Assembly (NCBI GenBank): GCA_020426595.1
Contig: JAGQPS010000002.1
Location: 1 to 61,302 of the forward strand
Origin: Planctomycetales bacterium
GTDB taxonomy: Bacteria > Planctomycetota > Planctomycetia > Pirellulales > Pirellulaceae
Direction of reading: 5' to 3'
DNA: 61,302 nucleotides
The translations under genes and the position numbers were made by a program. Numbering within the stretch: the first letter of the stretch is position 1; the number at the start of each line of letters is the position of its first letter. This document shows, one piece after another, positions 27,782 to 59,585 of the stretch. The notes under the pieces are model-generated. The model saw nothing but the letters and a program-made list of their open reading frames with translations. It had not been told where the DNA came from and ran no database searches.

Positions 27782-27863
27782 GTCGGGAACCACGAATTGT
27801 CATCGTGTTTGGCCAGCCGAGATCCGACTGGCTTATCCGATCACGAATAAAGGAGAGGACATC

Positions 27864-29348
<1,485 letters not shown>

Positions 29349-32907: not shown

Positions 32908-33120
32908 CAAACGCACCTTCAAACGACTTCGACATCACCGGGTGATTCGCGGGCGTTTCATGACGCTCGACCTCCGCGAATCGCAAAGTTCTTGACGAGC
33001 CGGGGGCTCGTCTGGCACCTTACTACTAAGTCGTGGGGGCGACTTGCAATCAGTCGACGACCATTGCCAACGGCAAGGGACATCGACTCGGTCGCTTATT
33101 TGACACAGGAGCCCGACAGG

Positions 33121-36624: not shown

Positions 36625-38850
36625 CTACAAACTGAGATCGAACGTCTCTTCAATCGTTCTCAACGCTCTCGTTGCCAATGAAACTGGCTCGGAAAGAAAC
36701 CTTGCTTCGCCTTGTGCGCCCACGTGCAAGTGATGCACCTGTTCGGGAACCGATACGACGACTTGGTAAATCACGGACGCGGTTTCTTCCGTTCCATCGT
36801 GAAGCGTCGTCGTGGGCAATGTCCCCTGATACTTGGTCGAGAGTGAGTTAGGCACTTGTGTCGTGTAGTGACGTGAAATGGAGAGGATTTCTCCGACATG
36901 GACAGCGTCCGGCAGGTGCCTAAATTTCATTCGTAGAGTTTCTCCTTCGGCCAACTGATCGCGATGTCGTTGGTCGACGTAGATCACCGCGACGAACTCG
37001 GACCGATTCGGGGCCACACTTCCCAGTTCCGTCCCTCGCTGAAGAAACGCTCCGATGTTTCCTCGCTCAAGCGGCTGTCCGATCCATTGCGAGAGAGTCT
37101 TGTGTTGAGCGTCCCTCGGTCGTTCGTCGCGCACGGTAGGGGGCGCGATGAAGTGACCGTCACTCGGAGACTTGACGACGAGTTCATCCAACCTCCGTCG
37201 CATATCATCTCGTTGAGCCCGCAAACTGGCAGCGCGCCCTTCCGCTAGTTCGGCTCCGACTCCATCCAAATCCCTTCGTTTCTGTGCTGCCTCCGACTCC
37301 GCCACGGAAAGTCGGCCTTCCAGTTCGGCGAGTTGCAGTTCCAAGGCCGGATCGACGAGTCGAGCAATGACTTGCCCCGCATCGACTGGCCCGCCATCAA
37401 CAACGCCAACGAACTCCAACCGTCCCGCCGTGGGCAACATCAAACGCTGGGATCCCTTCGATTCAATGACGAATGGTGAAGTCGAGAACCACGGGAACGG
37501 CACGGCGAAGACAAGCACGAAGGTTACGGCCAAAACACTCAGAGTGACACCAACCTTTTTCATGTCGAGCCTCTCATTTCGTTCGATCCAGAGGGTTTTG
37601 TATCCCTGCCAGAGAGCGCCACCAACCATTTTGCCAATCGAGACAACGCCGACAATCAGCCCTAGGTTCTGCAAGCCGTAGGGCTGTAGCCAACGAAACA
37701 GGAAGACGGTGATCCCCACGATCAAAACCAACTGATACACCATCGATCCAAGGGAATAGACGATGAACCAGGTTCGCCGTCCGCGCGGCATGAAGGGGTC
37801 CTCCTTCGGCTCGATACCGAAGCAGTGCCAGTAAATCGCCGACTGAAGGAACTTCGTGGCCTTGGTCCGCAGGTTGGGAATCTCGAGGAAGTCCGCCAAT
37901 GCGTAGTATCCGTCGAACTTCATGAGCGGATTGGCGTTGACCAAGACGGTGCTCATCGAAGTGACAAAGATCACGTTGAGGGCCAAGTGGTTTAACACGC
38001 CCGGCGTCGTCCTCCACCAAATAAAAATCGCGATCGCGGAAAGCAGCAATTCCACGACGACACCCGCGAAGGCGACCGCAATCCGCTTCCACTTGTTTTC
38101 AAACATCCATGAATCGGAAACATCGCAGTACAGGGTTGGCGAGAAAACGAGCACCATGATCCCCATGTCATGGCACTCGCCGCCGTAGTATTTGCAGGCG
38201 AGTCCATGGCCGAATTCGTGAAGGACCTTGATGAGTGCCAGGAGACACCACAGATAGAGAACATTCGGCCCCGAGAAGAACTGTTGAAACGTGGGCAGCC
38301 GAGATTGGAATAGATCAAAATTCGCGGCGACGCTTAGCCAAGCCACGGCAACGAGAAATGCGAAAAAGCACAATACGACCGGCTTAAAGATCCATCCGAT
38401 CCAGGGCACCATCCGATCGAGCATTCGATCGGGATCCCATCCGGGAAGTCGGATCGAAAGAAAGTTGGCCACGGTTTGCCGTGCCTGTCGCCACCACTCC
38501 TTGCGAGATTTGATAACGAGTGCCACTCCGCGTCCCGATCGATCGGTGATCAGCAGATTCTTGGCATGTAAGTCGCCAACCAACGTCTGGATGTCCTTGA
38601 TAGCTACCCATGTCCATGGGTACTTCGCGACCATGGCATCCCGCAGCACGGAGAGACTGTGGGTCCCATCAAGCTGCTGAAGCAAGTAGTACTGCTCATC
38701 CTCCAGACGATAGTACTTCAGCGCTATGGGGTCCTTGCAAACCCAATAGCCCTTTCCCTCGAACCCAATCCGACGAAAGACCAAATCTTGTCGCGGACGA
38801 AAAGGAACAGGACGCTGGCTCGCGGATTGAAAAGCCGCCTCTTGGCTCAT
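36625..38850 (-). CDS. Tri-domain protein: PqqD-like (RRE-like) N-terminus, M50/site-2-protease-like membrane metalloprotease and C-terminal HlyD-type adaptor
   Basis: A strong SD site (aaggagag) precedes the ATG. The N-terminus YYRLEDEQYYLLQQLDGTHSLSVLRDAMVAKYPW...LVGDLHAKNLLI follows the PqqD pattern. The polytopic region has HEFGH and a downstream NANPLMKFDGYY (NxxPxxxxDG). After a last TM helix comes a HlyD-like hairpin and coiled coil (GQVIARLVDPALELQLAELEGRL...VVKSPSDGHFI). Confidence 0.85.
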   Translation of the reverse strand: MSQEAAFQSASQRPVPFRPRQDLVFRRIGFEGKGYWVCKDPIALKYYRLEDEQYYLLQQLDGTHSLSVLRDAMVAKYPWTWVAIKDIQTLVGDLHAKNLLITDRSGRGVALVIKSRKEWWRQARQTVANFLSIRLPGWDPDRMLDRMVPWIGWIFKPVVLCFFAFLVAVAWLSVAANFDLFQSRLPTFQQFFSGPNVLYLWCLLALIKVLHEFGHGLACKYYGGECHDMGIMVLVFSPTLYCDVSDSWMFENKWKRIAVAFAGVVVELLLSAIAIFIWWRTTPGVLNHLALNVIFVTSMSTVLVNANPLMKFDGYYALADFLEIPNLRTKATKFLQSAIYWHCFGIEPKEDPFMPRGRRTWFIVYSLGSMVYQLVLIVGITVFLFRWLQPYGLQNLGLIVGVVSIGKMVGGALWQGYKTLWIERNERLDMKKVGVTLSVLAVTFVLVFAVPFPWFSTSPFVIESKGSQRLMLPTAGRLEFVGVVDGGPVDAGQVIARLVDPALELQLAELEGRLSVAESEAAQKRRDLDGVGAELAEGRAASLRAQRDDMRRRLDELVVKSPSDGHFIAPPTVRDERPRDAQHKTLSQWIGQPLERGNIGAFLQRGTELGSVAPNRSEFVAVIYVDQRHRDQLAEGETLRMKFRHLPDAVHVGEILSISRHYTTQVPNSLSTKYQGTLPTTTLHDGTEETASVIYQVVVSVPEQVHHLHVGAQGEARFLSEPVSLATRALRTIEETFDLSL

Positions 38851-39104: not shown

Positions 39105-41102
39105 GTGGAAAGCCGGCTTGATCGGCTAACATCACGTATCGACGACTTGCAGGGGCGCGCCGGGGATGTCCGGGTTTTCCTTGGCGCCTTTTTGCCGATA
39201 GTCGTCGAGGAGACCCGAGCCGACGCGGGCGTCGTTTGGCGTCCTGTGTCGGCGACACAGTGGGCGGCCGTCGTCGACGTGGGACTCGATCAAACCTTGT
39301 TGCCGGAGTCCGCCGAGGCGATTGAAGACAATAATCGACGGCTCGTGGCCTGCTTCGAGAGTGGCGAAGCTTCATTGGGCCTCGATGCCTCGGAAACGGA
39401 CTCGCCTCTCGGTCGCTATTGGGTTGTCGTTTGCCCGTTGTTTATCCAACGCCAACCGGCGGGCTGCCTGCAGCTTTTCTTTGATCGAACGGCCGACAAG
39501 GAACCGGAACTTGCCTTGGAACTCGCCGAGCATGCCGCGGGTTTGGCTAGTCTCGAACTGGAACGTTCAACGCGAGCTCCCGACTCTGGCGCCATTTCCA
39601 GCGCGACGCCAACACGCGAATCGATCGGCGAGCTGTCCCTGAAATTACATCGAAGCCTGAGCCTCGAATTGACTTGTGCCGTTGGAGCGAACGACGGTCG
39701 CCTGTTCCTCGACGCGGACCGTGTTTCGGTGTTTGTGTCTCGCGGCAAGTCGACTCGCGCGTTGGCCATAAGCGGTCAAGAAAAGGTGAATCAACATGCC
39801 GTGTTGGTCCGCAAGCTAACCGCTGTCGCGCGACTCGTGGCCGATCGAAAGTCACCGATGACGTATCTCGGGGCGAGTGAAGCGCTCGATGCGGAGGCTC
39901 AGGAAGTCGTCGCGGAATTGATCGACGAATCGGGCTTGAGGAATCTGGTCGCGATCCCGCTCCTCGCCGAGGATGAAGTGACGCTTGATGAATCGTCACT
40001 GCGTCGACGCCGCCGGTCTGGCTCGAGTCCGGCGTTGGTGGGTGTTCTGTTGGCGGAATGGTCGGGTGACGCGCGGCGTCCGACTCACCAATTGGCCAAC
40101 CTCGAGACCCTCGGCCAACATTTAGCTAGTTCGATCCACGGTTCACTGCATTTTCGCCGTGTACTTTTATTGGAGACTCGATATCGAATTGGTCTCGCCT
40201 GGGAGTGGTTCCATGGCCGACGCCTACAATTGGCCGCACTTATTCTGACAGCGGTCATCGGTGTTCTTTTGGCATTGGTCCTGGTTCCATGGACCTATCG
40301 TGTGAAGGCGGATGGTCGCGTGCTCCCAGCGACTCGCGCCAACGTATTCGCTCCCGCCGACGGCTACTTGAGATCCGCGAACCTGTCGGTTGCTTCCAAC
40401 CAGCGAGTTCACCAGGGCGATGTGTTGCTGCGTTTGGAGAGTGATTCCCTCGAGCAAGAACTTCATCGGGTCGACGGGGAACGGGCGGAATTGGAGAGTC
40501 GTGCCCTCGCATTACAAGCTCAGATCCACGCCACGGTTCTCGACCGGGAAGCCAATCAATTGCGACTCGATCTCGCGCAGACGCAGAGTCAATTGCAGTC
40601 CGTCGAAACGTCGCTCGGCTTATTGAGAAAACAGCTTGACGACTTGACGATCACCGCTCCGATCGATGGAGTCGTGATTACTTTTCAGGTCGAGAAGTGG
40701 TTGACCGATCGGCCTGTGAATCGAGGGGAATTGCTGCTGGAGATCATGGACGATTCAGGCCCTTGGCACTTGGAAGTGCGAGTTCCCGCGAAACGCATCG
40801 AGCATGTGGAAACGATGCGCGATCAGCTGGGAGAATCGTCGCCGCTGACGGCGGAGTTCTTTCTCGTGGCGGCCCCGGAGCAAGTTTTGGAGGGGCCGGT
40901 CTCGCGGATTTCTTCACGAGTTGAAAGCACGGGACAAGAAGGTCCAACTATCGAGATGATCGTGGAGCTCAACGGCATTGAATTCGCTCGACCCAAAATC
41001 GGAGCCGAGGCGCGGTGTCGTATTCCCTGCGGCAAGCAGCCGCTCGGGTACGTCCTCTTTGGAGACGTGGTCGACTATTTGCGAACTCGCCTCTGGTTCT
41101 AG
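39105..41102 (+). CDS. GAF-GAF-TM-HlyD-like protein
   Basis: GTG start, divergent from 36625..38850. It has two GAF-like modules, one TM helix (LAALILTAVIGVLLALVLVPW), a HlyD hairpin (APADGYLRSANLSVASNQRVHQGDVLLRLES), a coiled coil and a beta-barrel. It is collinear with 16358..18637. Confidence 0.8.
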   Translation: MESRLDRLTSRIDDLQGRAGDVRVFLGAFLPIVVEETRADAGVVWRPVSATQWAAVVDVGLDQTLLPESAEAIEDNNRRLVACFESGEASLGLDASETDSPLGRYWVVVCPLFIQRQPAGCLQLFFDRTADKEPELALELAEHAAGLASLELERSTRAPDSGAISSATPTRESIGELSLKLHRSLSLELTCAVGANDGRLFLDADRVSVFVSRGKSTRALAISGQEKVNQHAVLVRKLTAVARLVADRKSPMTYLGASEALDAEAQEVVAELIDESGLRNLVAIPLLAEDEVTLDESSLRRRRRSGSSPALVGVLLAEWSGDARRPTHQLANLETLGQHLASSIHGSLHFRRVLLLETRYRIGLAWEWFHGRRLQLAALILTAVIGVLLALVLVPWTYRVKADGRVLPATRANVFAPADGYLRSANLSVASNQRVHQGDVLLRLESDSLEQELHRVDGERAELESRALALQAQIHATVLDREANQLRLDLAQTQSQLQSVETSLGLLRKQLDDLTITAPIDGVVITFQVEKWLTDRPVNRGELLLEIMDDSGPWHLEVRVPAKRIEHVETMRDQLGESSPLTAEFFLVAAPEQVLEGPVSRISSRVESTGQEGPTIEMIVELNGIEFARPKIGAEARCRIPCGKQPLGYVLFGDVVDYLRTRLWF

Positions 41103-41365: not shown

Positions 41366-44300
41366 ATGAACCGACTCCGAATTGACGACCTCCACGTCGT
41401 ATCTCCGGTTAATGAGTCCGAGCAGGATCAGAGTTTTGGAGCCGGCTTGCGGCGACGGCGGCCCAAGGAATTTCGTGGCGGTGCCGTCGAGGTGTTGGAA
41501 GCCAAGCAGATGCTATCCGCCACGGCGGCCGTAGTGCTCAAGAATGGGGTTTTGTCGGTCCGAGGCACGGAGCGAAATGATCGTATCGTCGTGGCGGAGA
41601 AGCGAGGGCTGATTCGTGTGTCGATCAATGGCCGCTCCGTCAATATTTCAAATGCCGGAAAGGCCGCGAAGGCGTCCGCGGTGAAGCGAGTCGAGGTGTC
41701 GGGTCTGGGAGGAAATGACCGAATTGATGTCCGAACTCTCCGGCGATCGGCGGTGTTGCGTGGTGGTGCCGGTAATGACACGTTGCTAGGCGGCGGTCGT
41801 GCTGATCGCCTCGATGGCGGAAGTGGCAATGACACACTCCGAGGCTACGCCGGAAACGATCGAATACTCGGCGGATCTGGCAACGACTCGATCGACGGTG
41901 GTTCGGGAAACGATTATCTCGACGGACAGTCGGGCAACGACCGCATCAAGGGCGGTACCGGAAACGACGTCTTGCAGGGCGGCAGCGGCACGGATTCGCT
42001 CTACGGAGGCTCGGGAAATGATCGACTCACCGGTGGCGACGGCGCGGATCGTCTGTTCGGTGAAGCGGGCGACGATCGGCTCTGGGGCGACAAGCAAGAT
42101 ACGGTTCTCGACGACCGTTCGGGGAGTGATCGAGTCTCGATAGCCAACTCGGCACCCACCGACATACTCCTGAGCGCGCGACGGCTGACCGAGGGTGTTA
42201 ACGGTGCCGAGATCGGGCGAATTACGGTGGTCGACGCGGATGTGAACGACCAACATACGCTGACCGTTTCCGACAGCCGCTTTGAAGTTTTCAACGGCGT
42301 ACTCAAGCTCAAGGACAACGTAGCGATCGATTTCGAGACGGAACCGTCGGTGCAAATCTCGATTACGGCGAAGGATTCAAGCCAAGCCACCAAGACATCC
42401 GTGTTTTCGATCGAGGTAATCGATCTCAACGAGCTACCTGTCATCGGCAATCTGAAAACACTGGAGATCGGGCGTGATTCGGCGAGCACGCTTGTTAACC
42501 TCAGCATTGTCGATCCGGACGGAGATGCCTTTGAGGTTCATGCCTCGTCGAGCAGTGATCAAGTCTCCGCGACTATCGTCAATAATGCGCTCAAACTCAC
42601 GCCTGCCCTAGGATTTGTTGGAACATCGACGATCACGGTTCAAGTCAAGGACAAGACATCGGGCAAGTCCCTCGAGAAGGAGTTCCAACTTGTCGTTCGT
42701 GGCACGCGAGCCGAATTGGTAAATGGCGTCTTGGCGATTCGCGGATCCAATCAGGCCGACCACATTCGACTCAACGCGGAAGGCGCTTCCACTTCCGGCA
42801 AACTCGTCGTTCTGGATGGCGAGGCCGTGATTGGCACTTTCGAGGCCAAGAACGTTCGAGCGATTCAAGTCGAAGCGGGCGCCGGAGATGACATCATCGA
42901 CCTGACACAGGCCGTGATGAGTGCTTGGGTCCATGGCGGAAGTGGCAACGACACCATCCATGGTGGTTCAGGAGCCGATCACCTGTTTGGCTCGACGGGA
43001 GTCGACAAGATCTACGGCAATTCCGGCGCGGATGTGATCTACGGAGGCGACGATCAGTTCAACGATAAGGGAGAGTTGGTCGGAGTGGTGGACGGAGGCA
43101 CGGATGTTGACTTCCTTTCCGAAGGTACCGGCCGCAAGCTAGTCGCCTCAACCGATGATCGAGACATCGAAGCCATGGACTTCGAGGAGCGATCCTACTT
43201 CGATCTGTTGCACCAGTTTCGAGATGCCCATGGCTTTGTAATCTCCCAGACCGGTGACGGAATCGACCAGCGTGGCGACGCCATGCTTTTCACCGGACTG
43301 GCGGCGACGTTGGCTGCCCAGCGTGGTGATTCCGGTGCGGTGCTCGAACTGCTCAAGACCTTGAAAGACGAGCCGTTTGTTGACGAACTTGGGCGAACTC
43401 GCCTCGTGAGACATCCCGAGGTTTGGGATTACGTCAATGAGAACGGAGTTTATGTGCGGGAACGCCATGCCCCCGTGACCAAGGACGGCGTTGTCGGTGT
43501 TATCTCGGCCGTCTACTACGCATTCAAGGCTGGCGGCATGACGGAAGAGGTCCGTTCGTTGGCCAAGGAGGTCGCGACAAAGTACATCGATTATCTAATC
43601 GCCAATAACTGGATGACGATCGACCGGTACCCAGAGCATTACTGGGAAACTCGAGAACTCCCATCCGACGAAAACGACCCCGACAGTGACAAGAAGTCGT
43701 ACTTCTCGAACGTCTTTGGCGAGGGTGGTACCCGGGTCATGTACAAGGGAGTCGACGGTTACGCGTTGATGCCCAACGACCGATACGCGCTGAAGAACGC
43801 CGCGGCGGAAATGGGAATCGCCACCCAAGGCTGGTCGGTATGGGGTGGCCTAGGGGTGACGTTGGGCAAGGTCCTGGGTGATACCACCGCCGACTTTATC
43901 AGCGGTGTCGCCGACGATCTCGGCGATTGGGCAAGCGAGCGCGTGGGTGTATTCCTCAAGAGTATCTCGTTTGACGAGAGCTATAGCTTTCATGTGATTC
44001 CGGGACTGGATTGGACCCTCGTCAAGGGCGACGTCAAGCTCGAGATCTCGTCAGCCAACCGTGCGGGTATCGCCAACCTCGTGGGCGACGCCATTCGGTC
44101 CACGATCAAGACTCTCTTGGGTTCCACCATCGACAATGGCACGGAACTGGTCGCCCTGGCTAAGCAACTCTCGGATCTCCAAGGTCGTATCGTCGACCAG
44201 TTGTTGGATTCACTCCCCTCGTGGCTGCAAGGTGATAAGTGGCGTCCCTTGGTTGGCGACGCGATCCAGCAAGTCCTACCTTGGCTCAGTGGTGATGTAT

Positions 44301-45781
44301 TCGGTGAGCTGATTGCCTTCACGGTCTCGCATCGCATGGGAGAGTCCGACAACATCGTGGCTCACCTTTCATTCTGGCCAACATTGGTGGCCCTTGAGTC
44401 TCGGCCTGAACTCGTCGATTTGCTCATGCCTTCGATTCGGAACCTCGACAAGAAACTGAATCCCAGTTCGAGCGATGATTTCTTCGACACCGGCGCCTCC
44501 AAGATGGACATGGCTCTCTATGCGTGGCTCGCCGGTGAAGACAAGTTGGTGAGCAAGTACATCGAGTTGTTTGAATCGGATCGTCGATTCGACGCTCTCG
44601 CCTATGCGTGGAAGAAGGACCACAAGGAAAACGTCGAAAAGATCCTCGGTGATGGCGCGGGCACGAAGGATTCGGGCAATCATCGCCTGGAATATTTGCT
44701 GCTCAAGTCGTTGCAGCGGAGAGGCACTCCGCCCGCGTTCAGCGCGATCAAGAACGACTGGATCAAGCATTGGCGGGAGCAACTGAAGGCAATCGGAGAT
44801 CAGGCGGCCAAGGCTTGGCAGGACCTAAAATCCAACTTGGTGAAATTCGCTCAGGCCCTCGCGAAAGAGTTTGGAGTCGGCCTGGACAAGATCGGCTCGG
44901 CTCTCTGGAAAGTTTCCCAAAGTGTCGAGGGAATCGCGGCGGCTCTTTGGTCGGTCGAACAAAACCTGGGCAAGGTGGCCGCGACGCTCTGGAGCTTGAA
45001 ACCCGATCTAGGGCAAGTCGCATCGGCGCTTTGGAGCGTCAAGCAAGATGCCGTGCAAGTCTTCCAAGCAATGCTCAACGGAGCCAAGGTTGGGTTCGTT
45101 GACGCCATTCAAGCGGTCGTCGATGGCAAGCTCATTTCGGGCAACGCCGCCAGCGTGGCGAAGTTCTTGATCCTCGACGTGAAGACGGGCATTGGTACGG
45201 GAATCCTGCAACTCAAGAACTGGCTCAATGGCGATCTCGCCGGAGCTTTTTGGGGCGCGGTCAACGGTGCCAACTTGGGTTGGAAGGATGCGTTGAATGG
45301 CCTAACTTCCTCGGGCTTGGTTGCGAACAATTCCTACGAAATGGCCAAGTTCCTACTCAACACCGCCAAAGCGAATTTGAGTACCACGGCGACCGCCATC
45401 TCTCAATGGCTCAACGGAAACGTCAGTGCCGCCTTCTGGGCGATCTGCACTGGAGCGGGCAAGTCGCTCAAGGACGCGGTCAACGGAATCGTCTGGGCGG
45501 GACTCGTGAAGAACAACTCCTACGAAGTCGCCAAGTTCCTCCTCAACTCCGCCGGTGCCGGACTCTCCAAGACCGCCAAGGCGATCTCCGACTGGCTGGG
45601 TGGCGATCGTGATGCCGCCTTCTGGGCGATCGCATCCGGAGCTGGGAAGGGGTATGTCGACGCGACAAAGGCCCTGATCTGGGCTGATCTCCTCGGCAAC
45701 TCGTATACGACGGTGCTGAATTACCTTAAGTCGAAGCTTGGCCTTACCAGCGCTTTGAAAGTCGTCAACAGCATCTTCTAG
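41366..45781 (+). CDS. Large RTX (hemolysin-type calcium-binding repeat) protein with cadherin/Ig-like modules and a repeat-rich C-terminus
   Basis: 1471 aa. The N-terminal block has about 12 GGxGxD nonapeptides (GGAGNDTLLGG...GGSGNDRLTGGDGADRLFGEAGDDRLWGD). A cadherin-like module (ITVVDADVNDQHTL...VIDLNELPV) and a second RTX block (HGGSGNDTIHGGSGADHLFG...) follow. Next come ~700 aa of unknown function and then two kinds of tandem repeat. Confidence 0.9.
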   Translation: MNRLRIDDLHVVSPVNESEQDQSFGAGLRRRRPKEFRGGAVEVLEAKQMLSATAAVVLKNGVLSVRGTERNDRIVVAEKRGLIRVSINGRSVNISNAGKAAKASAVKRVEVSGLGGNDRIDVRTLRRSAVLRGGAGNDTLLGGGRADRLDGGSGNDTLRGYAGNDRILGGSGNDSIDGGSGNDYLDGQSGNDRIKGGTGNDVLQGGSGTDSLYGGSGNDRLTGGDGADRLFGEAGDDRLWGDKQDTVLDDRSGSDRVSIANSAPTDILLSARRLTEGVNGAEIGRITVVDADVNDQHTLTVSDSRFEVFNGVLKLKDNVAIDFETEPSVQISITAKDSSQATKTSVFSIEVIDLNELPVIGNLKTLEIGRDSASTLVNLSIVDPDGDAFEVHASSSSDQVSATIVNNALKLTPALGFVGTSTITVQVKDKTSGKSLEKEFQLVVRGTRAELVNGVLAIRGSNQADHIRLNAEGASTSGKLVVLDGEAVIGTFEAKNVRAIQVEAGAGDDIIDLTQAVMSAWVHGGSGNDTIHGGSGADHLFGSTGVDKIYGNSGADVIYGGDDQFNDKGELVGVVDGGTDVDFLSEGTGRKLVASTDDRDIEAMDFEERSYFDLLHQFRDAHGFVISQTGDGIDQRGDAMLFTGLAATLAAQRGDSGAVLELLKTLKDEPFVDELGRTRLVRHPEVWDYVNENGVYVRERHAPVTKDGVVGVISAVYYAFKAGGMTEEVRSLAKEVATKYIDYLIANNWMTIDRYPEHYWETRELPSDENDPDSDKKSYFSNVFGEGGTRVMYKGVDGYALMPNDRYALKNAAAEMGIATQGWSVWGGLGVTLGKVLGDTTADFISGVADDLGDWASERVGVFLKSISFDESYSFHVIPGLDWTLVKGDVKLEISSANRAGIANLVGDAIRSTIKTLLGSTIDNGTELVALAKQLSDLQGRIVDQLLDSLPSWLQGDKWRPLVGDAIQQVLPWLSGDVFGELIAFTVSHRMGESDNIVAHLSFWPTLVALESRPELVDLLMPSIRNLDKKLNPSSSDDFFDTGASKMDMALYAWLAGEDKLVSKYIELFESDRRFDALAYAWKKDHKENVEKILGDGAGTKDSGNHRLEYLLLKSLQRRGTPPAFSAIKNDWIKHWREQLKAIGDQAAKAWQDLKSNLVKFAQALAKEFGVGLDKIGSALWKVSQSVEGIAAALWSVEQNLGKVAATLWSLKPDLGQVASALWSVKQDAVQVFQAMLNGAKVGFVDAIQAVVDGKLISGNAASVAKFLILDVKTGIGTGILQLKNWLNGDLAGAFWGAVNGANLGWKDALNGLTSSGLVANNSYEMAKFLLNTAKANLSTTATAISQWLNGNVSAAFWAICTGAGKSLKDAVNGIVWAGLVKNNSYEVAKFLLNSAGAGLSKTAKAISDWLGGDRDAAFWAIASGAGKGYVDATKALIWADLLGNSYTTVLNYLKSKLGLTSALKVVNSIF
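44891..45058 (+). repeat. Intragenic 4 x 42-bp (14-aa) tandem repeat in RTX protein 1
   Basis: The units are IGSALWKVSQSVEG, IAAALWSVEQNLGK, VAATLWSLKPDLGQ and VASALWSVKQDAVQ. Confidence 0.85.
45158..45715 (+). repeat. Intragenic 3 x 186-bp (62-aa) tandem repeat in RTX protein 1
   Basis: The unit is AKFL(I/L)L..........I..WL(N/G)G.....AFW.A..GA.....DA.....W..L..NNSYE. Copies start at 45158, 45344 and 45530, and a half unit precedes them. Confidence 0.85.
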
Positions 45782-45876: not shown

Positions 45877-46080
45877 ATGCCGAACCAACCAGCAATCACC
45901 GAGGGTGCGTTGCCGGACGATCGTCCGATGAAGGCCGCCATGGAACCTGATTCGCCCGATCCTGGGCCAGTGTTTGGAGCGGATGTCGATCCTTCCGAGG
46001 ATTGGGACCGCTCCGTTTCCAGCGATGCCACGGAATCGCAATTCGATTCGATTGAGCCTGTTTCAGGCGAAGCCGAGTAA
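45877..46080 (+). CDS. Small, very acidic Pro/Asp-rich hypothetical protein (67 aa)
   Basis: GAGGAG lies 9 nt upstream of the ATG. The gene starts 95 bp downstream of RTX gene 1. Its composition resembles the ORF at 49871..50122 (many DP, EP and SD dipeptides, with few basic residues: three Arg and one Lys). Confidence 0.4.
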   Translation: MPNQPAITEGALPDDRPMKAAMEPDSPDPGPVFGADVDPSEDWDRSVSSDATESQFDSIEPVSGEAE

Positions 46081-46578: not shown

Positions 46579-49500
46579 ATGAGTCGTCTCACTATCACTG
46601 ATCTCGTCATTTCATCGACTCCGAGTCTCGAGGATCAAGACCAGCAATTCGGAGCCGGTATTCGTCGGCGACGTTTGCGGGAATTCCAGTCAGCGACGGC
46701 GGAAGTGCTCGAGTCGAAGCAGATGCTCTCGGCGACGGCGACCGCGGTGTTCAAGAACGGCGTCCTGACGGTGAATGGCACGAGCCGCAGCGAGAAGATC
46801 GCGGTTACCGAAAACAAAGGCCAACTCCGAGTCCAAGTCAACGGCAAGAGCCTGCGGATCGCGGGGGCCGGCAGCCAGGTCGCCGCGACTCGAGTGAAAC
46901 AAGTGGCGGTCAACGGCAAGGCCGGCAACGATCGCATCGATGTTTCGTCCGTCAATCGAGTAACTAGGCTCGATGGCGGAGCGGGCAATGACACGATCCT
47001 TGGCGGCAAGAAAGGTGACACGATTTTCGGTGGATCGGGCAATGATCGACTCTACGGCCGAGCCGGCAATGACCGGATTTTCGGTGGGTCGGGCAACGAC
47101 CTCCTCGAGGGTGGATCGGGCAATGACTTTCTCGACGGACAATCGGGAAAGGACCGCATTAAGGGTGGCAGCGGGAACGATACGCTCAAGGGTGGAACGG
47201 AAAACGATCAGTTGATCGGCAACGAGGGGTCCGACCGACTGTATGGCGAATCGGGTGATGACGTTTTGATCGGAGGCGACTCCACCGACGTGTTGTATGG
47301 AGGTGCTGGGAACGATGAGTACATGGTCGGGAACGATGGCGACACAAGCGTCATTCGGGACGACCAGAAGGTTGAGGCCAATGATGGGAGCATCGAGAAA
47401 TTCATCAGCAAGCCGAAGGTAAACGTCAACTCTGTCAACACTCGGCGACCGACCCTGTTGGTAATCACACAAGGAGCGGCCACGACCAATGTTGGTGGGG
47501 CTGGCACGGGACGCCATGTGTATCCGTGGCAAGAGACCTTGGCTCAAGCGATGGAGGACGACTTGCGCAAGGCGGGCTCGCAAGTCCACACCATGGTCGT
47601 GAGCTGGAATTCCCTCGCTACGAATACGACTCAAACTGAGCGAGTCGCCAACCACATCAAGGAGTTTCTCGCCGCTCGATCCCAGCAGTGGGATGTTGTA
47701 TTGGTCGGACATAGCCGAGGAGCGATCTTCAACCAAGAGATTGCGGGACTTCTGGGCGATCCCAAGAACATGAATGTGTTGCAACACGTCATGATCGACC
47801 CGACGGCCGCGACTTCGATGGGCGATCAATATCCTCAGGGAACACCTAGGAATGTCGATCGAGCCATTGTCTACGACGATGGCTATCAGTTTCTTCCATT
47901 CGCGGCTGTTCGTGATGGTGAGCGAGTTGCCGGAGCGGAGTATCAACGAGTATCGCTGCCGGATACCGGGTATTACGATACCGCGGCGAGTCACAATCGA
48001 ATCGCTAAGTGGTATGCCCAAGGCGCTTACCATGCGGATCTTGACTGGCTGCTCTCGCAGAAGTCGACCGGACGGTATGCCGGCGAACAGACGAGTGACA
48101 ATGGTCGCGAATATGTCAGTGTCTCTGGCCCGGCCAAGGAACAGAACCTGATCGACGTCGGCTTCGATCCCAATCGCAACGGCGACATGCATGGTTACAT
48201 CAGCGTGCTGGGCGTCGGTGGAGTCGACATCAAGATCGGCAAGAGTGGGGTGCAAGCCGGAGGCGGCGTGACTTTTGGTGGATCAGCGGGAGTCGGCCTT
48301 TCCCAGGATGGCGTTTCGATCCATGTCACCGGTCCCGGTGCCGGGCCGCTCAATTACGGCTACGGGGTTGTCATCACCAAGGACGAGGCCACGGTCAACG
48401 CGGATGTCGGACCGCTCAATATCACGCTCAGCACCAAGGGTGGATCGATCTATGTCGGCGGAAAGAGAATCACGTTCAACAAGACGGTCGACAAGGCGGG
48501 CAAGTGGGTCGTAAACCAAATCCTGGCTTCGCGCGAACGCATCTCGACCACGCTGCAGAACTTCGAGCGCGTTCGGATCGAGAAGTTCGATCAAGCCGGA
48601 AAGCTCGTGGCCAAAGGCTGGAAGAATGGCTCGCAATGGGTGTCCCAGTCACTCAACAGCGCTGGCAAGGTATTGCTTCAGTGGACCTACCACGGCGGGT
48701 ATGGTTCGGCTCTCAAGATCTTGTCGCAATACGATGCTCAAGGAGCATTGTTGGCCACCCAGGAATTCGCCACGAATGGCGTTCGCTTGATCAACAAGTA
48801 CATCAACTCAAGCGGTCAGTGGGTCTCGCAGAAGTTCGATTCGGCCGGAAAGATGGTGAGCGAGTGGATTTATCACGGCAAACTCGGCTCTCAGCTCAAG
48901 CAATGGCGGGCCTGGACCTCGGCCGGCTTATCGAATTGGAAGGAATACGCAACCAATGGAGTGATGGTCGCCGAACGGTTCCTCGACAGTGCAGGGAAGT
49001 GGATCTCCAAGTCGTTCGACACCGCTGGCAAGCTGCTCAATCAGTGGAGCTACTTTGGCGGTTACGGGTCGGCGCTCCAGCAATGGAAATCGTGGAACGC
49101 CGCCGGAACATTCACCGGCATGCGGGAGTACCTCTCCAACGGAGTCAAGACTCTTGATCGTTGGTTGAACTCGAGTGGCAACTGGATCTCGCAGAAATTC
49201 AACTCGACTGGTCGGCTCGTAAATGAATGGATGTACCACGGCGGATACGGCTCCGTTCTGAAGCAATACAAAGCCTGGAGCGCGTCGGGGACGTTCACCA
49301 ACTGGTCTGAGTACTCGACCAACGGTGTCAAGACAGCCACTCGCTGGCTCGATTCAAGGGGACGGTGGATTTCCCAACGCCTTAACAGCGCGGGCAAGGT
49401 CCTCAATCAATGGCTCTACTTCGGAGGCTATGGCTCGAAGCTCCAGGAATGGGCCGAATGGTCGAGCGGCGGCAAGTTGCTCAATCTCGAGCGGTTCGCG

Positions 49501-49695
49501 ACCAACGGACTCAAGACCCTCGACGCTTACTGGTCAACCGCCGGCAATTGGGTGGAACGCACCTATCAGGACGGTAAGGAGATCGCCGTGAAGATCTGGG
49601 ACTCGGCCGGAAAGTACTTGGGCGACCAGTACAAGAACTTCAAGGACGCCGCGTCCAAGTTGGATCCGACCACAAAGAACTGGTGGCCATTCTAA
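46579..49695 (+). CDS. RTX protein with an alpha/beta-hydrolase (lipase-like) domain and C-terminal ~60-aa tandem repeats
   Basis: 1038 aa. The first ~240 aa are collinear with RTX protein 1, including the GGxGxD block. The central region has a nucleophile elbow VLVGHSRGA (GxSxG). The C-terminal repeats are listed separately. Confidence 0.9.
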   Translation: MSRLTITDLVISSTPSLEDQDQQFGAGIRRRRLREFQSATAEVLESKQMLSATATAVFKNGVLTVNGTSRSEKIAVTENKGQLRVQVNGKSLRIAGAGSQVAATRVKQVAVNGKAGNDRIDVSSVNRVTRLDGGAGNDTILGGKKGDTIFGGSGNDRLYGRAGNDRIFGGSGNDLLEGGSGNDFLDGQSGKDRIKGGSGNDTLKGGTENDQLIGNEGSDRLYGESGDDVLIGGDSTDVLYGGAGNDEYMVGNDGDTSVIRDDQKVEANDGSIEKFISKPKVNVNSVNTRRPTLLVITQGAATTNVGGAGTGRHVYPWQETLAQAMEDDLRKAGSQVHTMVVSWNSLATNTTQTERVANHIKEFLAARSQQWDVVLVGHSRGAIFNQEIAGLLGDPKNMNVLQHVMIDPTAATSMGDQYPQGTPRNVDRAIVYDDGYQFLPFAAVRDGERVAGAEYQRVSLPDTGYYDTAASHNRIAKWYAQGAYHADLDWLLSQKSTGRYAGEQTSDNGREYVSVSGPAKEQNLIDVGFDPNRNGDMHGYISVLGVGGVDIKIGKSGVQAGGGVTFGGSAGVGLSQDGVSIHVTGPGAGPLNYGYGVVITKDEATVNADVGPLNITLSTKGGSIYVGGKRITFNKTVDKAGKWVVNQILASRERISTTLQNFERVRIEKFDQAGKLVAKGWKNGSQWVSQSLNSAGKVLLQWTYHGGYGSALKILSQYDAQGALLATQEFATNGVRLINKYINSSGQWVSQKFDSAGKMVSEWIYHGKLGSQLKQWRAWTSAGLSNWKEYATNGVMVAERFLDSAGKWISKSFDTAGKLLNQWSYFGGYGSALQQWKSWNAAGTFTGMREYLSNGVKTLDRWLNSSGNWISQKFNSTGRLVNEWMYHGGYGSVLKQYKAWSASGTFTNWSEYSTNGVKTATRWLDSRGRWISQRLNSAGKVLNQWLYFGGYGSKLQEWAEWSSGGKLLNLERFATNGLKTLDAYWSTAGNWVERTYQDGKEIAVKIWDSAGKYLGDQYKNFKDAASKLDPTTKNWWPF
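48625..49533 (+). repeat. Intragenic tandem repeat: 5 full units of ~60-61 aa, plus partial units on both sides
   Basis: The unit is (N/D)S.G.W(I/V)SQ.F(N/D)(S/T)AGK....W.Y.GGYGS.L.QW..W...G.......EY.TNGV.....(W/F)L. Confidence 0.85.
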
Positions 49696-49870: not shown

Positions 49871-50122
49871 ATGTCCTCCGAGACGACCTCGTCAATCAAT
49901 GTGTCCGACACGATCCCGGCCGATCGCCAAGTTCTCAGTCAGGATGATAAGACCGACCTAGCCGAAGCGATTGGCCAGACGGGATCGCCCGGTATCGAAG
50001 ATGACCCAGCATTCGATCCAGAACCTTCCATCGGGCCGGATTCCGATCTCATCGACTCGCCCGTTGATGTTGATCCTCTCGCCGATCCAGGGGTCGAGGA
50101 ATCCATCGATGCTACCGAGTAG
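49871..50122 (+). CDS. Small, very acidic Pro/Asp-rich hypothetical protein (83 aa)
   Basis: ATG start with only a weak SD site. It ends 12 nt before the GTG of the cNMP/C39 ORF. Its composition resembles 45877..46080 (DDPAFDPEPSIGPDSDLIDSPVDVDPLADPG). Confidence 0.4.
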   Translation: MSSETTSSINVSDTIPADRQVLSQDDKTDLAEAIGQTGSPGIEDDPAFDPEPSIGPDSDLIDSPVDVDPLADPGVEESIDATE

Positions 50123-50133
50123 ATCGTGAGTCG

Positions 50134-52086
50134 GTGAGCGCGCGTCGATTTGAATGCAATACGGATTCCCTCAAGTCAATCGAGTGTTGGAACAGAGCTT
50201 CCCACACACGTCACTTGTCGACCTTGCTCGTTTTACTATCCCAGGTGGTGTCTCTCGTGGCGTTGCCCTCGCCGATGTTGTCCCTGCGTCAGTGCTTCCA
50301 GCTTCAACTGGCCGGTCCATGCCAGTTCGAGCCGTGGGATACCCGGCTTGAACTGCTCGAGTATCGAGCGGGCCAGGTGCTATTCGAGCCAGACGAAGAA
50401 GGCTCGGCCGCGTTTCTACTCGTCGCGGGGCGGCTCAGACTATACGGCCGCAACTCAACGATGGGACAGGTTGCTCCCGGGACATTGGTCGGTGGCCATA
50501 GCCGGGCCGAACAATGGAATCGGCAGTTGGGATGCCGGGCATCCGAGCACTCCTGGGTCTACCGGTGGCCTCGTGTTGATTTCGATGATTTCCTACGGGC
50601 TCACCCGCGCTTGGTTCCGGTTTTCGATAAGACGTTGGCGGAGGCCGCGTTCCTTGAGCTGTCAAAGCTCTCCCGCCTCTTGGCGACCGTTCCATCCCAA
50701 CTGCTCATGCCGCTGGTCGATCAGTTGGTTTGGCACGAATTCGATGAACAAGAGATCGAGCTGGACGCGGAGCTCGTGCAGGATGTCTTCGCCGTCGTGC
50801 AGGGCTCGATCGAATTAACAAGCGTCAATGCCTCCGACGGACGCCCCGTATGCGCCTTCGGCCCTGGCGAATTGTTCACATTGCAGGAGTGGCCGCCTGG
50901 CGAAAGACTAAATGTCGCGACGAGCGGCGACGCCATTTGTTATCGTCTCCCGTCGGACGTCCTGGCCCAGTATCGATCCGAATTACCCCTGCTTGAACCG
51001 GCGATTCGGCGTACGTTTCGTCCACCGTCGGAGGTCGCCGATAAACCAGACATGGATCGGTATTCGTTGGTTTTGCGATCCGAAGACGACGGCACACCGA
51101 CGAATTTCAGCGGCGATCCACGAGCCACTCATGAGCAGGACGACAAACTCAAGCTCCGCCCGCTTCTTGAGTTGCTACGGATGGAAGCCCTCGCCAGTTG
51201 CCTACCGCCGCGCCGAATCCTCGGTCTAATCGATTCGGCGCGCGAGCGGCTGTTTGTCGATGGTTCATTGCTCCATGTAACGGGCCATTCGCTCGGAGTC
51301 GAGCAAGAGTGGATTTGTTTGTTGGTCGAGGGAAGTGTCGATGTCGTCGCGGTATCGCCGGTCGAGCGACGCATGGTCGCCAAATTGCTGCCTGGAGAAT
51401 TCTTCCTAATTGAACAACAGGAGTCTCACAAAGTGGGCTCCCTGCCAAAGCACTACGTGGCCAATGGACATGTGCGTTGTCTGATCTTTCCATTGACGGA
51501 CGTATTGCGAGGCTCGTCCACGCCCGAGCAAGCAGCGACGATTCTCGCTCGGCTCTCGGATCGAGAAATCGCGTTCTTAAAACGACGAACCTTGGCGGCG
51601 TCCCAAGGTAACCCGATCCGCCACGCGTCTCGATCTCGAGAGCGATCGATCATTGATCAGCAATATCCATGGATCGGACAAGCCCAGGAATCCGAATGCG
51701 GACTGATCGCACTGGCGACGGTCGCGAGATTTCACCAGTTGCCGGTCAACATCGACGAATTGCGCGGCCGAATTCAGCTGATGCCGCTGGGCCTCAGCCT
51801 TCTAGAAATGCAGCGGATCGCCGAGTCAATCGGTCTGGATGCCGAAGTCCTCCACGCCAACGAGCAAACGCTTGAGACGATAGAACTGCCGGCGGTCTTG
51901 CATTGGAAAGACTCGCATTACGTCGTGCTTTACCGAATTGGAAATGGAACGGTGCTTTACGCCGATCCGGAGATTGGTTTGATCAAGACAACGGTACGTC
52001 ACCTGTTGTCGTCCTGGAATGGACGGCTACTGGCCGTTTCGCCGCGAACTTCGTATCGATCCGACGCGGAATTCAATCCGGTCTAG
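50134..52086 (+). CDS. cNMP-binding-like domains (up to three, degenerate) fused to a C-terminal peptidase C39 domain, with no ABC transporter part
   Basis: The C-terminus QQYPWIGQAQESECGLIALATVARFHQLPV...LPAVLHWKDSHYVVLYRIGNGTVLYADPEIG shows the C39 Cys, His and Asp pattern. The upstream segments resemble CAP/cNMP beta-barrels (EYRAGQVLFEPDEEGSAAFLLVAGRLRLY and VFAVVQGSIELT...FGPGELF and WICLLVEGSVDVV...LLPGEFF). The start may instead be the ATG at 50275. Confidence 0.85.
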   Translation: MSARRFECNTDSLKSIECWNRASHTRHLSTLLVLLSQVVSLVALPSPMLSLRQCFQLQLAGPCQFEPWDTRLELLEYRAGQVLFEPDEEGSAAFLLVAGRLRLYGRNSTMGQVAPGTLVGGHSRAEQWNRQLGCRASEHSWVYRWPRVDFDDFLRAHPRLVPVFDKTLAEAAFLELSKLSRLLATVPSQLLMPLVDQLVWHEFDEQEIELDAELVQDVFAVVQGSIELTSVNASDGRPVCAFGPGELFTLQEWPPGERLNVATSGDAICYRLPSDVLAQYRSELPLLEPAIRRTFRPPSEVADKPDMDRYSLVLRSEDDGTPTNFSGDPRATHEQDDKLKLRPLLELLRMEALASCLPPRRILGLIDSARERLFVDGSLLHVTGHSLGVEQEWICLLVEGSVDVVAVSPVERRMVAKLLPGEFFLIEQQESHKVGSLPKHYVANGHVRCLIFPLTDVLRGSSTPEQAATILARLSDREIAFLKRRTLAASQGNPIRHASRSRERSIIDQQYPWIGQAQESECGLIALATVARFHQLPVNIDELRGRIQLMPLGLSLLEMQRIAESIGLDAEVLHANEQTLETIELPAVLHWKDSHYVVLYRIGNGTVLYADPEIGLIKTTVRHLLSSWNGRLLAVSPRTSYRSDAEFNPV

Positions 52087-52128
52087 AATGATTGATCCGT
52101 GTCCCATCACATTCCCAAGGTGTTTTCC

Positions 52129-52908
52129 ATGTCCGAGGTTCATGCATCCACGGTATTAGGGACAGTCAACGGCTCGCCCGTGAAATGGACCACGTTCCTC
52201 AGCGCGCTGAAGTGCGAGGGAGCCTGGAGTGCCAGCGTGGCGGCCTTGCTTCGATACGTTTTCATCGCCGAGCTCGCTTCTCGCCATCAAATAGCGATCG
52301 CCGACTCGGAGTTGCAGGCGGCGGCGGACCAATTTCGGGCGCGACGAGGCTTGCACAAGGCAAGCGATACCTATCAGTGGATCGCGCAAGAGTTGATCGA
52401 GGAGGATGAATTTGCTCGCCTTGTCGAGCATGAGTTGATCGTCGACAAGTTGAAGCGAGTCTTCTCGGACGAGGCGGTCCAGAACAAGTTCACCGCGGAA
52501 CGGAACCGTTTTGATCGGGCAAGACTGGCGCAAATCGTGGTCGACTCGAAGGGCCTGGCGGACGAGCTGCTAACTCGATTGGTCGAGGATGGCGACGACT
52601 TCTCAACGCTCGCCCGCCAACATTCGTTGGATCAGGACTCGAAGGACAACGGCGGATTTCTCGGCATCTTGAACCGAACCGATATGTCTTCGGAAGTCGC
52701 CGACACCGTATTCGCCAGTCAACCAGGAAACACGCTCGGCCCCTTTCGCATCGCCGGCGCCTACCACCTCGTGAAGACTCTCGAGCTACTCCCGGCGAGT
52801 CTCGATGAGGCGACTAGTGAGTTACTCCGCAATGAGATGCTCGACGAGGCGATCACACTGGCGATCGCGGCCGCGGATATCGAATTGAGGTTTGATATCG
52901 AGGACTAA
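52129..52908 (+). CDS. PpiC/parvulin-type peptidyl-prolyl cis-trans isomerase (SurA/PrsA-like)
   Basis: An N-terminal chaperone-like helical part is followed by ARLAQIVVDSKGLADELLTRLVEDGDDFSTLARQHSLDQDSKDNGGFLGIL...GNTLGPFRIAGAYHLVK. The ORF is open from the GTG at 52099. Confidence 0.85.
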   Translation: MSEVHASTVLGTVNGSPVKWTTFLSALKCEGAWSASVAALLRYVFIAELASRHQIAIADSELQAAADQFRARRGLHKASDTYQWIAQELIEEDEFARLVEHELIVDKLKRVFSDEAVQNKFTAERNRFDRARLAQIVVDSKGLADELLTRLVEDGDDFSTLARQHSLDQDSKDNGGFLGILNRTDMSSEVADTVFASQPGNTLGPFRIAGAYHLVKTLELLPASLDEATSELLRNEMLDEAITLAIAAADIELRFDIED

Positions 52909-53007
52909 TCGTGGCTCGCTGGGGCGAGCAAGGTGTTGCATGGATTAGAGCGAGGTACGGGAATTCCGCTCCGGCCATCGCGTCACGCGGGGAGGTCGAT
53001 ACCTTTC

Positions 53008-58833: not shown

Positions 58834-59585
58834 CTTATGTCCTCGATTGATTCCCAGACGGTGATTGTTCCAAACCGTTTTCCAACTCGTTCGCTCACCA
58901 CGAGAAGACAGTACACCCTCCATCGCCTTACTCCTGAAAAACAGCCACGATAGGAAGCGTCTTGGCCATGTTCCGATTCAAGGGCAACAAGCCGGCATCC
59001 GGTGAGACGCCTCTCGATATGGCACTGGCGATAACGGTAACCGCAGTTTGCTAGCAGCCGAGAATTGGCAAGCTGATTGTATTCACGGACACTCGCTGAA
59101 TTCCGCATCGACCGGTCTAGAACGCCGAAATTTGTTGGGTCACGGCGTATCCTCTCCGCCATTCAGCTCATCGATTGTAGGACCACTTCCACAGCCCAAC
59201 GGGTGGCGAATGGCCTGTCCGTTCAGCCTTGACTCGTTGGGGCGAATGCCGACAATTTCGACTCGTTGGCTCGACAAGGATGCCGGTCATTCCCTCGCGA
59301 ATGACGTGGGAATTCCTAGCCTAGAAACTCGCTCGACTCGAACGAAACGGCTCATGCAAGTGCCTTTCATTCCCGGAGAGCGAGGCCTGGTCGGCTCATC
59401 TATCGGAGCGGACCACGGGTTTGGATTCCGACTGCCAACATGCGTCGGTTCGAGTTGCTCCGCCATGTCGGAGTGGCTCGATCGTCGTGGAGATCGATTG
59501 CGACCGAGGCGACTGAGTCGTCTTGCTCGCAGGGACTCGACATCATTGATTTCAAGCGATCGAATTCGGCAAGGAGGCCGATGAG

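Follow-up and report, generated by a model that had tools for sequence, protein, structure and literature searches.

The DNA stretch analyzed (the window) comprises 61,302 nucleotides, positions 1 to 61,302 of contig JAGQPS010000002.1 from the Planctomycetales bacterium assembly GCA_020426595.1 (Pirellulaceae). On its minus strand, an uninterrupted open reading frame (ORF) encodes a protein in which a domain with the fold of a RiPP (peptide made on the ribosome and modified after translation) recognition element (RRE) is followed by an M50 site-2-protease membrane core and a HlyD-type adaptor module. The coordinates of this RRE-M50-HlyD fusion, its modules, and its neighbors are provided in Table 1. 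An initial annotation of the window, made from the sequence alone and stating no strand, had already described a single polypeptide with three modules, and this was borne out by the single ORF, the profile matches, and the analyses with AlphaFold2 (AF2) and Foldseek. The full-length AF2 model had a predicted local distance difference test score (pLDDT) of 86.9 and a predicted template modeling score (pTM) of 0.70. The sequence strings cited in that annotation, namely, YYRLEDEQYYLLQQLDGTHSLSVLRDAMVAKYPW...DLHAKNLLI (residues 46-102), HEFGH (residues 211-215), and NANPLMKFDG (residues 305-314), are present in the protein. Among the profiles that it had named, Peptidase_M50 and HlyD_3 scored above their cutoffs, whereas PqqD remained below threshold.

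The match of the N-terminal domain to the Pfam family PqqD (PF05402) was sub-threshold, with 15.3 bits against a cutoff of 23.4 (E = 0.026). Precomputed PF05402 matches exist on several homologues, and the homologue in locus L001 matched this family with an E value of 4e-4. When the sequence profile of the domain was compared with the Protein Data Bank (PDB), the best match was PqqD (3g2b, E = 0.014). An AF2 model calculated from an alignment of 26 N-terminal segments had a pLDDT of 90.8 and showed a beta3-alpha3 arrangement with strands at residues 24-30, 33-40, and 45-49 and helices at residues 51-59, 66-76, and 84-96. The 11 best PDB matches that Foldseek retrieved with this model were RRE domains without exception. 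The best three, TfuB1 with its leader (6jx3_B), PqqD (5sxy), and TbiB1 (5v1v), are all stand-alone RRE proteins and were matched with a probability of 1.00 and TM-scores on the target of 0.61-0.73, the value for 6jx3_B being 0.73; further matches were TigE, CteB, more TbiB1 chains, and TglHI. PqqD-like RRE domains bind the leader peptides of RiPPs and are the usual handle for tracing RiPP substrates. The leader groove in the solved RRE-leader complexes is formed by beta3 and alpha3, and the leader is added as an extra strand beside beta3. In the fusion, the corresponding residues of beta3 (L44, Y46, R48, and L49) and alpha3 (Q88, D93, and L94) are invariant or nearly so. The PqqD/RRE-like N terminus proposed in the initial annotation is thus confirmed as an RRE by its fold, and leader binding is predicted.

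The membrane core matched Peptidase_M50 (PF02163) over residues 202-278 with 30.6 bits (cutoff, 27.2; E = 2.7e-7). Two NCBIfam models aligned to larger segments. NF041824, which describes the RRE-site-2-protease of daptide pathways, covered residues 34-408 (E = 1.3e-60) with 205.5 bits at an equivalog cutoff of 300, and NF058609 (YydH/LiaK) covered residues 161-328 only (E = 1.4e-11) with 44 bits at a cutoff of 225. The HEFGH and NANPLMKFDG motifs, which had been likened to those of site-2 proteases, were both located in transmembrane (TM) helices, and H211, E212, H215, N305, N307, P308, D313, and G314 were invariant in 102 aligned homologues. Hydropathy and AF2 agreed on seven TM helices at approximately residues 141-176, 194-221, 253-280, 285-305, 359-391, 394-421, and 430-449. 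Placing the RRE in the cytoplasm puts the two catalytic motifs on the cytoplasmic side and the adaptor, which follows the seventh helix, in the periplasm. The initial annotation had regarded an HExxH motif on the wrong side of the membrane as a potential objection; hydropathy and AF2 placed each motif where its helix ends on the cytoplasmic side, and since this topology is coherent with a cytoplasmic RRE, the objection does not apply. Furthermore, a beta hairpin at residues 228-243 of the AF2 model resembles the re-entrant loop of site-2 proteases. Judged from its sequence, the M50 core looks catalytically intact, and proteolytic activity is predicted. The segment that follows the HExxH motif (residues 219-256, positions 38083-38196) contains a Cys/His cluster in which C219, C226, H227, and C242 are conserved; position 239 is a Cys in most homologues and a Thr here, and D246, W248, K253, and W254 are invariant. 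This cluster, located in the cytoplasmic loop and hairpin, may correspond to a second metal site or to a substrate gate.

The C-terminal module matched HlyD_3 (PF13437) with 33.7 bits (cutoff, 22.2; E = 6e-8). According to AF2, TM helix 7 is followed by lipoyl-like strands, an alpha-hairpin at residues 501-555, a beta-barrel, and a C-terminal amphipathic helix. With the full-length model as query, Foldseek matched mainly adaptors (ZneB, MexA, MacA, EmrA, and AcrA; E = 1e-11 to 1e-9), and a comparison of the sequence profile with the sequences of the PDB returned adaptors only, namely, MacA (2.8e-10), EmrA, and LipC, and no solved site-2 protease. The adaptor that the initial annotation had placed after the final TM helix is therefore borne out by the HlyD_3 score, the hairpin and barrel of the model, and the structural matches.

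An exhaustive HMMER scan retrieved 12,415 clusters of homologues at 50% identity (E ≤ 1e-3), 4,190 of which had E ≤ 1e-30; the usual length was around 740 amino acids. Nearly all of the best 150 matches were 700-760 amino acids long and aligned end to end. A word-indexed search produced more than 1,382 matches, and all named ones were from Planctomycetota (Gimesia, Lignipirellula, Caulifigura, and Planctomicrobium). A copy with 27% identity was found in a metagenome-assembled genome of an Acidobacteriota member (L001), the sole locus from a single-protein scan of genome contigs; its HlyD part was evident by Pfam only. The homologues bear different names, including "HlyD family efflux transporter periplasmic adaptor subunit" (NCBI), "PqqD family peptide modification chaperone," and "putative peptide zinc metalloprotease" (JGI/KEGG). 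Three homologues of 822-828 amino acids (P0113, P0118, and P0121) contain a PDZ domain (PF17820, PF00595, and PF13180) within the periplasmic adaptor at around residue 640, an insertion that recalls the periplasmic PDZ domain of RseP.

To place the gene in its context, we inspected 89 related loci. The ORF analysis and all statistics refer to the first 86 (84 non-redundant), which comprise 80 loci from a metagenome scan with an alignment as the query, one from a collection of genomes, and five that were obtained by looking up named homologues; another three obtained in this way (L087-L089) were inspected by eye and are outside the counts. An M50 ORF was present in 86/86 loci and was nearly always a single M50+HlyD ORF, the exceptions being L013, where it is split by a stop, and a few loci cut by the contig end. 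The fusion is hence one gene and not two, a concern that had been raised initially. Because hundreds of full-length homologues are intact, an assembly or frameshift artefact as its source was rejected. The fusion is a real and widespread architecture.

The surrounding gene cluster and related loci

Table 1. Coordinates of the fusion gene, its modules and motifs, and the neighboring genes in the window
Feature	Position	Strand	Description and basis
RRE-M50-HlyD fusion	36625..38850	minus	741 aa, ATG start, uninterrupted ORF including stop
HlyD-type adaptor module	36628..37488	minus	Residues 455-741; Pfam HlyD_3, Foldseek, profile
M50 site-2-protease membrane core	37504..38430	minus	Residues 141-449; Pfam, NCBIfam, hydropathy, AF2
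NANPLMKFDG motif	37909..37938	minus	N305, N307, P308, D313, G314; Asp is third zinc ligand; cytoplasmic end of TM4
HEFGH zinc-binding/catalytic motif	38206..38220	minus	H211, E212, H215; cytoplasmic end of TM2
RRE/PqqD-fold domain	38545..38802	minus	Residues 17-102, cytoplasmic; AF2 and Foldseek
GAF-GAF-TM-HlyD protein	39105..41102	plus	665 aa, divergent from fusion; Pfam GAF, HlyD_3, HlyD_D23; single TM 376-394
RTX protein 1	41366..45781	plus	1471 aa; leader approximately residues 1-56; nonapeptides 133-231 and 524-560
Small acidic ORF right after RTX protein 1	45877..46080	plus	67 aa; system membership uncertain
RTX protein 2	46579..49695	plus	1038 aa; shared leader; repeats 133-249; GHSRG motif
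Small acidic ORF right after RTX protein 2	49871..50122	plus	83 aa; system membership uncertain
cNMP-binding and C39 cysteine peptidase	50134..52086	plus	Soluble; Pfam cNMP_binding, Peptidase_C39; without ABC transporter part
PpiC-like protein	52099..52908	plus	TIGR04500 'putative peptide maturation system protein' (NCBIfam E 3.5e-30); Pfam Rotamase
Truncated SecA paralogue	52933..54912	plus	659 aa; DEAD motor and preprotein-binding domain
OEP/TolC-like outer-membrane channel protein	55865..57928	plus	687 aa; Pfam OEP E 4.8e-22
Short HlyD adaptor	57925..58923	minus	332 aa; Pfam HlyD_3, HlyD_D23, Biotin_lipoyl

The GAF-HlyD and RTX (repeats-in-toxin) neighbors described in the initial annotation were found by Pfam as stated there. 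The start of the gene encoding the cyclic nucleotide (cNMP)-binding C39 peptidase is possibly at position 50257 (609-amino-acid gene call P0269); the protein has the catalytic C522, H595, and D611 motifs and no TM helix, and a search with it returned itself alone. Pfam detected no wing/scaffold domain in the SecA paralogue. We found no signature motif of an ATP-binding cassette (ABC) transporter anywhere in the window, and among the genes of the cluster, Pfam and NCBIfam revealed neither an inner-membrane transporter of the ABC, resistance-nodulation-division (RND), or major facilitator superfamily (MFS) type as a partner of the adaptor nor, among the neighbors, modification enzymes.

This gene set is the same as that of the "secondary SecA_DEAD" locus (Kamneva, Poudel & Ward 2015, PLoS One, PMC4452313), which consists of SecA_DEAD, Peptidase_M50/HlyD, GAF/HlyD, HlyD/biotin-lipoyl, and sometimes OEP proteins. 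All five components are present in the window at 36.6-58.9 kb, and the published locus likewise has no ABC transporter. That article notes this absence, proposes the M50 protein as a possible membrane component, reports the M50 similarity as weak, leaves the function open, and describes the locus in Planctomycetes and other phyla; according to the literature, it also occurs in Verrucomicrobia, Proteobacteria, Nitrospirae, and Chlorobi. The portion of the article considered here names no RRE/PqqD domain, cargo, leader, C39 peptidase, or PpiC protein, so the RRE fold, the intact-looking active site, the topology, and the candidate cargo are added here. The literature that we searched contained no follow-up to the 2015 article, no description of an RRE in this system, no proposal of a substrate signal, and nothing that joins RRE, M50, and HlyD. 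The initial annotation had not mentioned that the locus and its SecA paralogue were described in 2015 (PMC4452313) or that RRE-site-2-protease fusions are known (PMC10028931).

Among the related loci, a short HlyD gene was located immediately upstream of the fusion gene on the same strand in 57/66 loci, and a GAF-HlyD gene was present in 45 of the 51 loci with enough flank. In the closest relatives, an OEP gene lies downstream. Among the 24 loci with at least 8 kb on both sides, 8 contained a SecA paralogue and 1 (Lignipirellula cremea, L002) contained C39 and PpiC genes. The Acidobacteriota locus has the same operon plus an RTX protein, whereas the typical related locus (most of the 86) contains the fusion and two other HlyD paralogues and lacks an RTX gene. 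The frequent proximity of GAF-HlyD genes, which the initial annotation had suggested to survey together with RTX genes, was thus observed, but RTX genes are not a regular part of the neighborhood.

A gene for a protein of approximately 110 amino acids with the DUF3467 domain (PF11950, E = 1e-23) was identified in 27/73 loci, directly after the fusion gene or before the GAF-HlyD gene (e.g., L041:12222-12578). These loci include L001, L017, L020, L022-L024, L026, L028, L030, L033-L035, L039, and L041. Its N-terminal tail is acidic, its conserved core reads YANFCRVTGSPEELIVDFGLN…AKRLL, and the whole length of the protein is highly conserved; possible roles are those of a chaperone, an adaptor subunit, or a ligand of the RRE. 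A search of the window for a DUF3467 homologue found none.

Further adaptor genes were present. A second GAF-HlyD gene (16358-18736, 792 amino acids) is followed by a second short HlyD gene (15238-16338, 366 amino acids) on the minus strand, with no adjacent M50-HlyD gene, so that the window contains two adaptor pairs and only one fusion. The GAF-HlyD protein at 16358 is of the type that is collinear with and upstream of the fusion gene in most metagenomic loci; the GAF-HlyD proteins of 44 loci were closer to it, compared to 9 that were closer to the copy at 39105. On two metagenomic contigs, the first hlyD-hlyD-M50 set is followed a few kilobases downstream by another, divergent one (L034:7437-11110 and L035:18375-22191), and paralogous systems can therefore coexist in one genome.

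The G+C content falls from approximately 0.60-0.63 upstream to 0.57-0.59 across the secretion cluster (window positions ~36000-61302), which is compatible with the lateral transfer suggested in PMC4452313. The cluster is flanked by typical planctomycete genes encoding PSCyt1/PSCyt2/PSD1, DUF1501, and DUF1598 proteins (24503-29348 and 32992-34953), in line with an origin of the window from Planctomycetota, and a gene for an extracytoplasmic function (ECF) sigma factor is located at 30387-30965.

Leaders and candidate cargo proteins

The two RTX proteins of the window share an N-terminal leader of approximately 55 residues with the pattern MxRLxIxDL…(D/E)Q…FGAG(L/I)RRRR…EF…EVLExKQMLSAT (aligned nucleotides 41366-41563 for RTX protein 1). 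The same leader, MAKIQINNLPDVESISLEELDEAFGAGLRLRKRKQFHAAPAEVLEVRQMLSAT, opens a protein of 1889 amino acids without Pfam domains that is encoded beside the cluster in Lignipirellula (L002). This protein and RTX protein 1 are alike over residues 1-63 only (46% identity, E = 6e-13). Since the leader thus occurs on unrelated proteins beside the same cluster, it has the properties of a portable targeting module. The initial annotation had named as possible substrates the RTX N termini or the small acidic ORFs; the former are indeed a genuine portable leader, whereas no leader-like motif was found in the latter.

The leader consists of two halves. Its first half has the double-glycine form, and the L002 protein agrees with the classical consensus of C39 peptidases at I(-12), E(-8), L(-7), G(-2), and A(-1). 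A cleavage site between FGA and G is thus predicted. The second half contains a basic patch followed by EVLExKQMLSA. A hidden Markov model of the leader found nothing else among the 9,989 ORFs of the 86 loci, and the leader therefore tracks the C39 and PpiC genes at least as well as the fusion gene. A search of a 5.8-billion-protein database with the alignment of the three leader sequences produced 77 word candidates, none of which was significant. In L017, L020, L026, and L078, giant proteins encoded shortly after the operon on its downstream side begin with a basic segment and then an LExLExRxLLA-type motif, similar in sequence to the leader's second half; these are four cases, not a rate against a genome-wide background.

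A hydrophobic Sec-type signal sequence was absent from the cargo proteins. The RTX nonapeptides at residues 133-231 directly follow the leader, an arrangement that is the reverse of that in type I substrates. Taken together, the absence of a Sec signal and the N-proximal repeats fit an export that starts with the N terminus.

RTX proteins 1 and 2 are 54% identical over residues 1-268, i.e., the leader and the RTX block, and divergent beyond. In RTX protein 1, cadherin/Big_9-like domains occur together with WLNG…FWA repeats at the C terminus, and RTX protein 2 has a GHSRG motif and long C-terminal SAGK..xQWxYHGGYGS repeats. It seems that the cargo domains were exchanged while the export module in front of them stayed constant. 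After every leader-bearing cargo gene comes a short ORF whose product is strongly acidic and apparently disordered, with 67 and 83 amino acids in the window and 107 amino acids in L002 (L002:13352-13675). These ORFs have position and composition in common, and neither a leader-like motif nor an evident shared sequence motif was found in them; they could be dedicated chaperones, immunity-like partners, or non-genes.

Proposed role of the fusion and alternative explanations

Considering its modules and its genomic context, the fusion is an RRE-site-2-protease of the leader peptidase type that is joined to a HlyD adaptor and encoded in a locus that has been described yet is uncharacterized. We tentatively propose, in the knowledge that this reading falls somewhat short of an even chance, that it is the leader-recognizing and leader-cleaving inner-membrane subunit of a type-I-like exporter that spans the envelope and has no ABC transporter. 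The RRE would capture the N-terminal leader of the unfolded cargo, and the M50 protease would cleave it off at the face of the membrane, in the way that SpoIVFB acts on pro-sigma-K and MpaP on daptide precursors. The SecA-like motor would serve as the energy source, and the three adaptor paralogues would form the bridge to the outer-membrane channel. The two RTX proteins are the likely cargo in the window. The soluble cNMP-C39 peptidase would probably cut the first half of the leader at FGAG, and the second half, whose basic patch and EVLExKQMLSA are the candidate RRE/M50 element, would be left to the RRE/M50 pair. The site-2 protease SpoIVFB is known to remove the N-terminal prosequence of a protein, pro-sigma-K, that is not a membrane protein.

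Several points weigh against this assignment. We infer the mechanistic steps that go past domain identity, topology, and synteny, including the link of RRE and protease to a substrate. A SecA paralogue occurs within 10 kb in just about a third of the loci, and an adjacent cargo gene was not seen in most of them. Among the 86 loci and the window, the leader was confined to those with C39 and PpiC genes, i.e., the window and L002, and it may belong to that module; since the FGAG-containing leader was found only where a PpiC-like gene accompanies a stand-alone C39 peptidase with intact catalytic residues, the C39 peptidase competes with the M50 protease for the role of leader protease. The highly conserved surface of the RRE may serve a ligand that stays the same, for instance the DUF3467 protein or the tail of a subunit, and not variable leaders. 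Finally, site-2 proteases are not known to make protein-conducting channels, so the proposal does not explain the path of proteins of >100 kDa across the inner membrane. The idea of the initial annotation that leader recognition, proteolysis, and coupling to an outer-membrane channel may be united in one protein is partly supported, namely, by the modules, the topology, and the OEP gene in the cluster; the assignment of leader cleavage to the M50 domain has a rival in the C39 peptidase.

A more far-reaching proposal, which we consider doubtful, is that the RRE-M50-HlyD, GAF-HlyD, short HlyD, SecA-paralogue, and OEP proteins form a so far undescribed secretion system that exports large unfolded proteins with the N terminus first. 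Its signal would be a non-hydrophobic leader composed of a basic patch and ExLExRxLL[AS] (RRRR…EVLEAKQMLSA in the window) that is read by the RRE and removed by the protease. If true, this would explain the exit route of many giant planctomycetal proteins that have the leader motif and no Sec signal.

In the daptide protease MpaP, an RRE is located N-terminal to a site-2 protease that was assigned the RRE-dependent removal of leaders with ELExMEAP (PMC10028931). The order of RRE and M50 is the same in the fusion, and the homology to MpaP/NF041824 spans both domains; the fusion differs in its additional seventh TM helix and periplasmic adaptor of 290 residues, its Gram-negative planctomycete host, and its putative cargo of >100 kDa. 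Membership in the daptide family was rejected, given the score of 205.5 bits, below the cutoff of 300, and the absence of pathway genes and precursors: no daptide genes were found among the neighbors, and no precursors with ELExMEAP or a C-terminal Thr in any ORF of the window.

M50 proteases such as YydH process exported peptides, and the fusion likewise contains an M50 protease; the match to YydH/LiaK (NF058609) was to the M50 core alone and included neither the RRE nor the adaptor. With type I secretion (HlyB-HlyD-TolC) and peptidase-containing ABC transporters, the window shares a TM-anchored HlyD adaptor, a TolC-like channel, RTX cargo, a C39 peptidase, and a double-glycine-type leader. 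It differs in the absence of an ABC transporter, the soluble cNMP-binding form of the C39 peptidase, the SecA-like ATPase, the N-terminal instead of C-terminal position of leader and RTX repeats, and the presence of three adaptor paralogues. For want of an ABC transporter, we rejected both of these assignments, classical type I secretion and a peptidase-containing ABC transporter. SpoIVFB and RseP have the same helix orientation of HExxH and NxxPxxxxDG, an active site near the cytoplasmic face, and a re-entrant beta hairpin; unlike these proteases, the fusion has no CBS domain, and a PDZ domain is found in some variants only, inserted in the periplasmic adaptor.

The closest named families, NF041824 and YydH/LiaK, are RiPP leader peptidases, and homologues of the fusion are labeled "putative peptide zinc metalloprotease" by JGI/KEGG. 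These data would be compatible with a RiPP- or bacteriocin-like function, in which RRE and M50 mature a short precursor, the adaptor hands the product to the channel, and the RTX proteins are handled only by the C39, PpiC, and SecA-like genes. The small DUF3467 protein that adjoins the operon in a part of the loci and the small acidic ORF after each cargo gene would fit this reading. However, the DUF3467 gene and a daptide-like leader motif were not found in the window, the DUF3467 protein is conserved throughout, unlike a precursor with a variable core, modification enzymes were not found in the locus, and the acidic ORFs are alike in composition only. We consider a role in maturing and exporting a small protein or peptide unlikely.

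Site-2 proteases classically cut single-pass membrane regulators, as exemplified by RseP and SpoIVFB. A function of the fusion in regulated intramembrane proteolysis or quality control appears rather improbable to us, although the partners cross the membrane once and have sensory GAF domains, the RRE surface hardly varies, as it should if the ligand is always the same, and variants P0113 and P0118 have an RseP-like PDZ domain. In such a case, the protease would cleave GAF-HlyD, short HlyD, or an anti-sigma-like factor, with the RRE bound to the tail of a partner, and would thereby switch assembly or signaling. The ECF sigma factor gene mentioned above would fit this scenario, but it is located about 6 kb away, and the overlapping ORF on the opposite strand (30438-31169) matched no family, so that no anti-sigma neighbor was identified. 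Furthermore, regulated proteolysis leaves the fusion of a complete adaptor domain to the protease without a rationale and fails to explain why the adjacent cargo bears conserved, portable leaders. A plain efflux-pump adaptor with the M50 part as a mere membrane anchor, as suggested by the NCBI names of homologues ("HlyD family efflux transporter periplasmic adaptor subunit") and by the drug and metal efflux adaptors among the strongest C-terminal structural matches, is highly improbable because HExxH, NxxPxxxxDG, and the RRE core are invariant, which argues for the retention of catalysis and ligand binding, and because RND, ABC, and MFS pumps are absent from the cluster.

The presence of an RRE on the membrane core of a widespread, secretion-like apparatus, in a family that exceeds 12,000 clusters (50% identity) and is seen in Planctomycetota and Acidobacteriota, raises a testable question, namely, which leader is bound. 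If the ligand is a small protein or a partner subunit, this would still be a new use of the RRE-site-2-protease module. If, as we tentatively propose, the cargo consists of leader-bearing RTX or giant proteins, the locus would provide an ABC-independent route across two membranes that is driven by a SecA paralogue and has a polarity opposite to that of type I secretion, and the function of RREs would extend from small peptides to proteins of >100 kDa.

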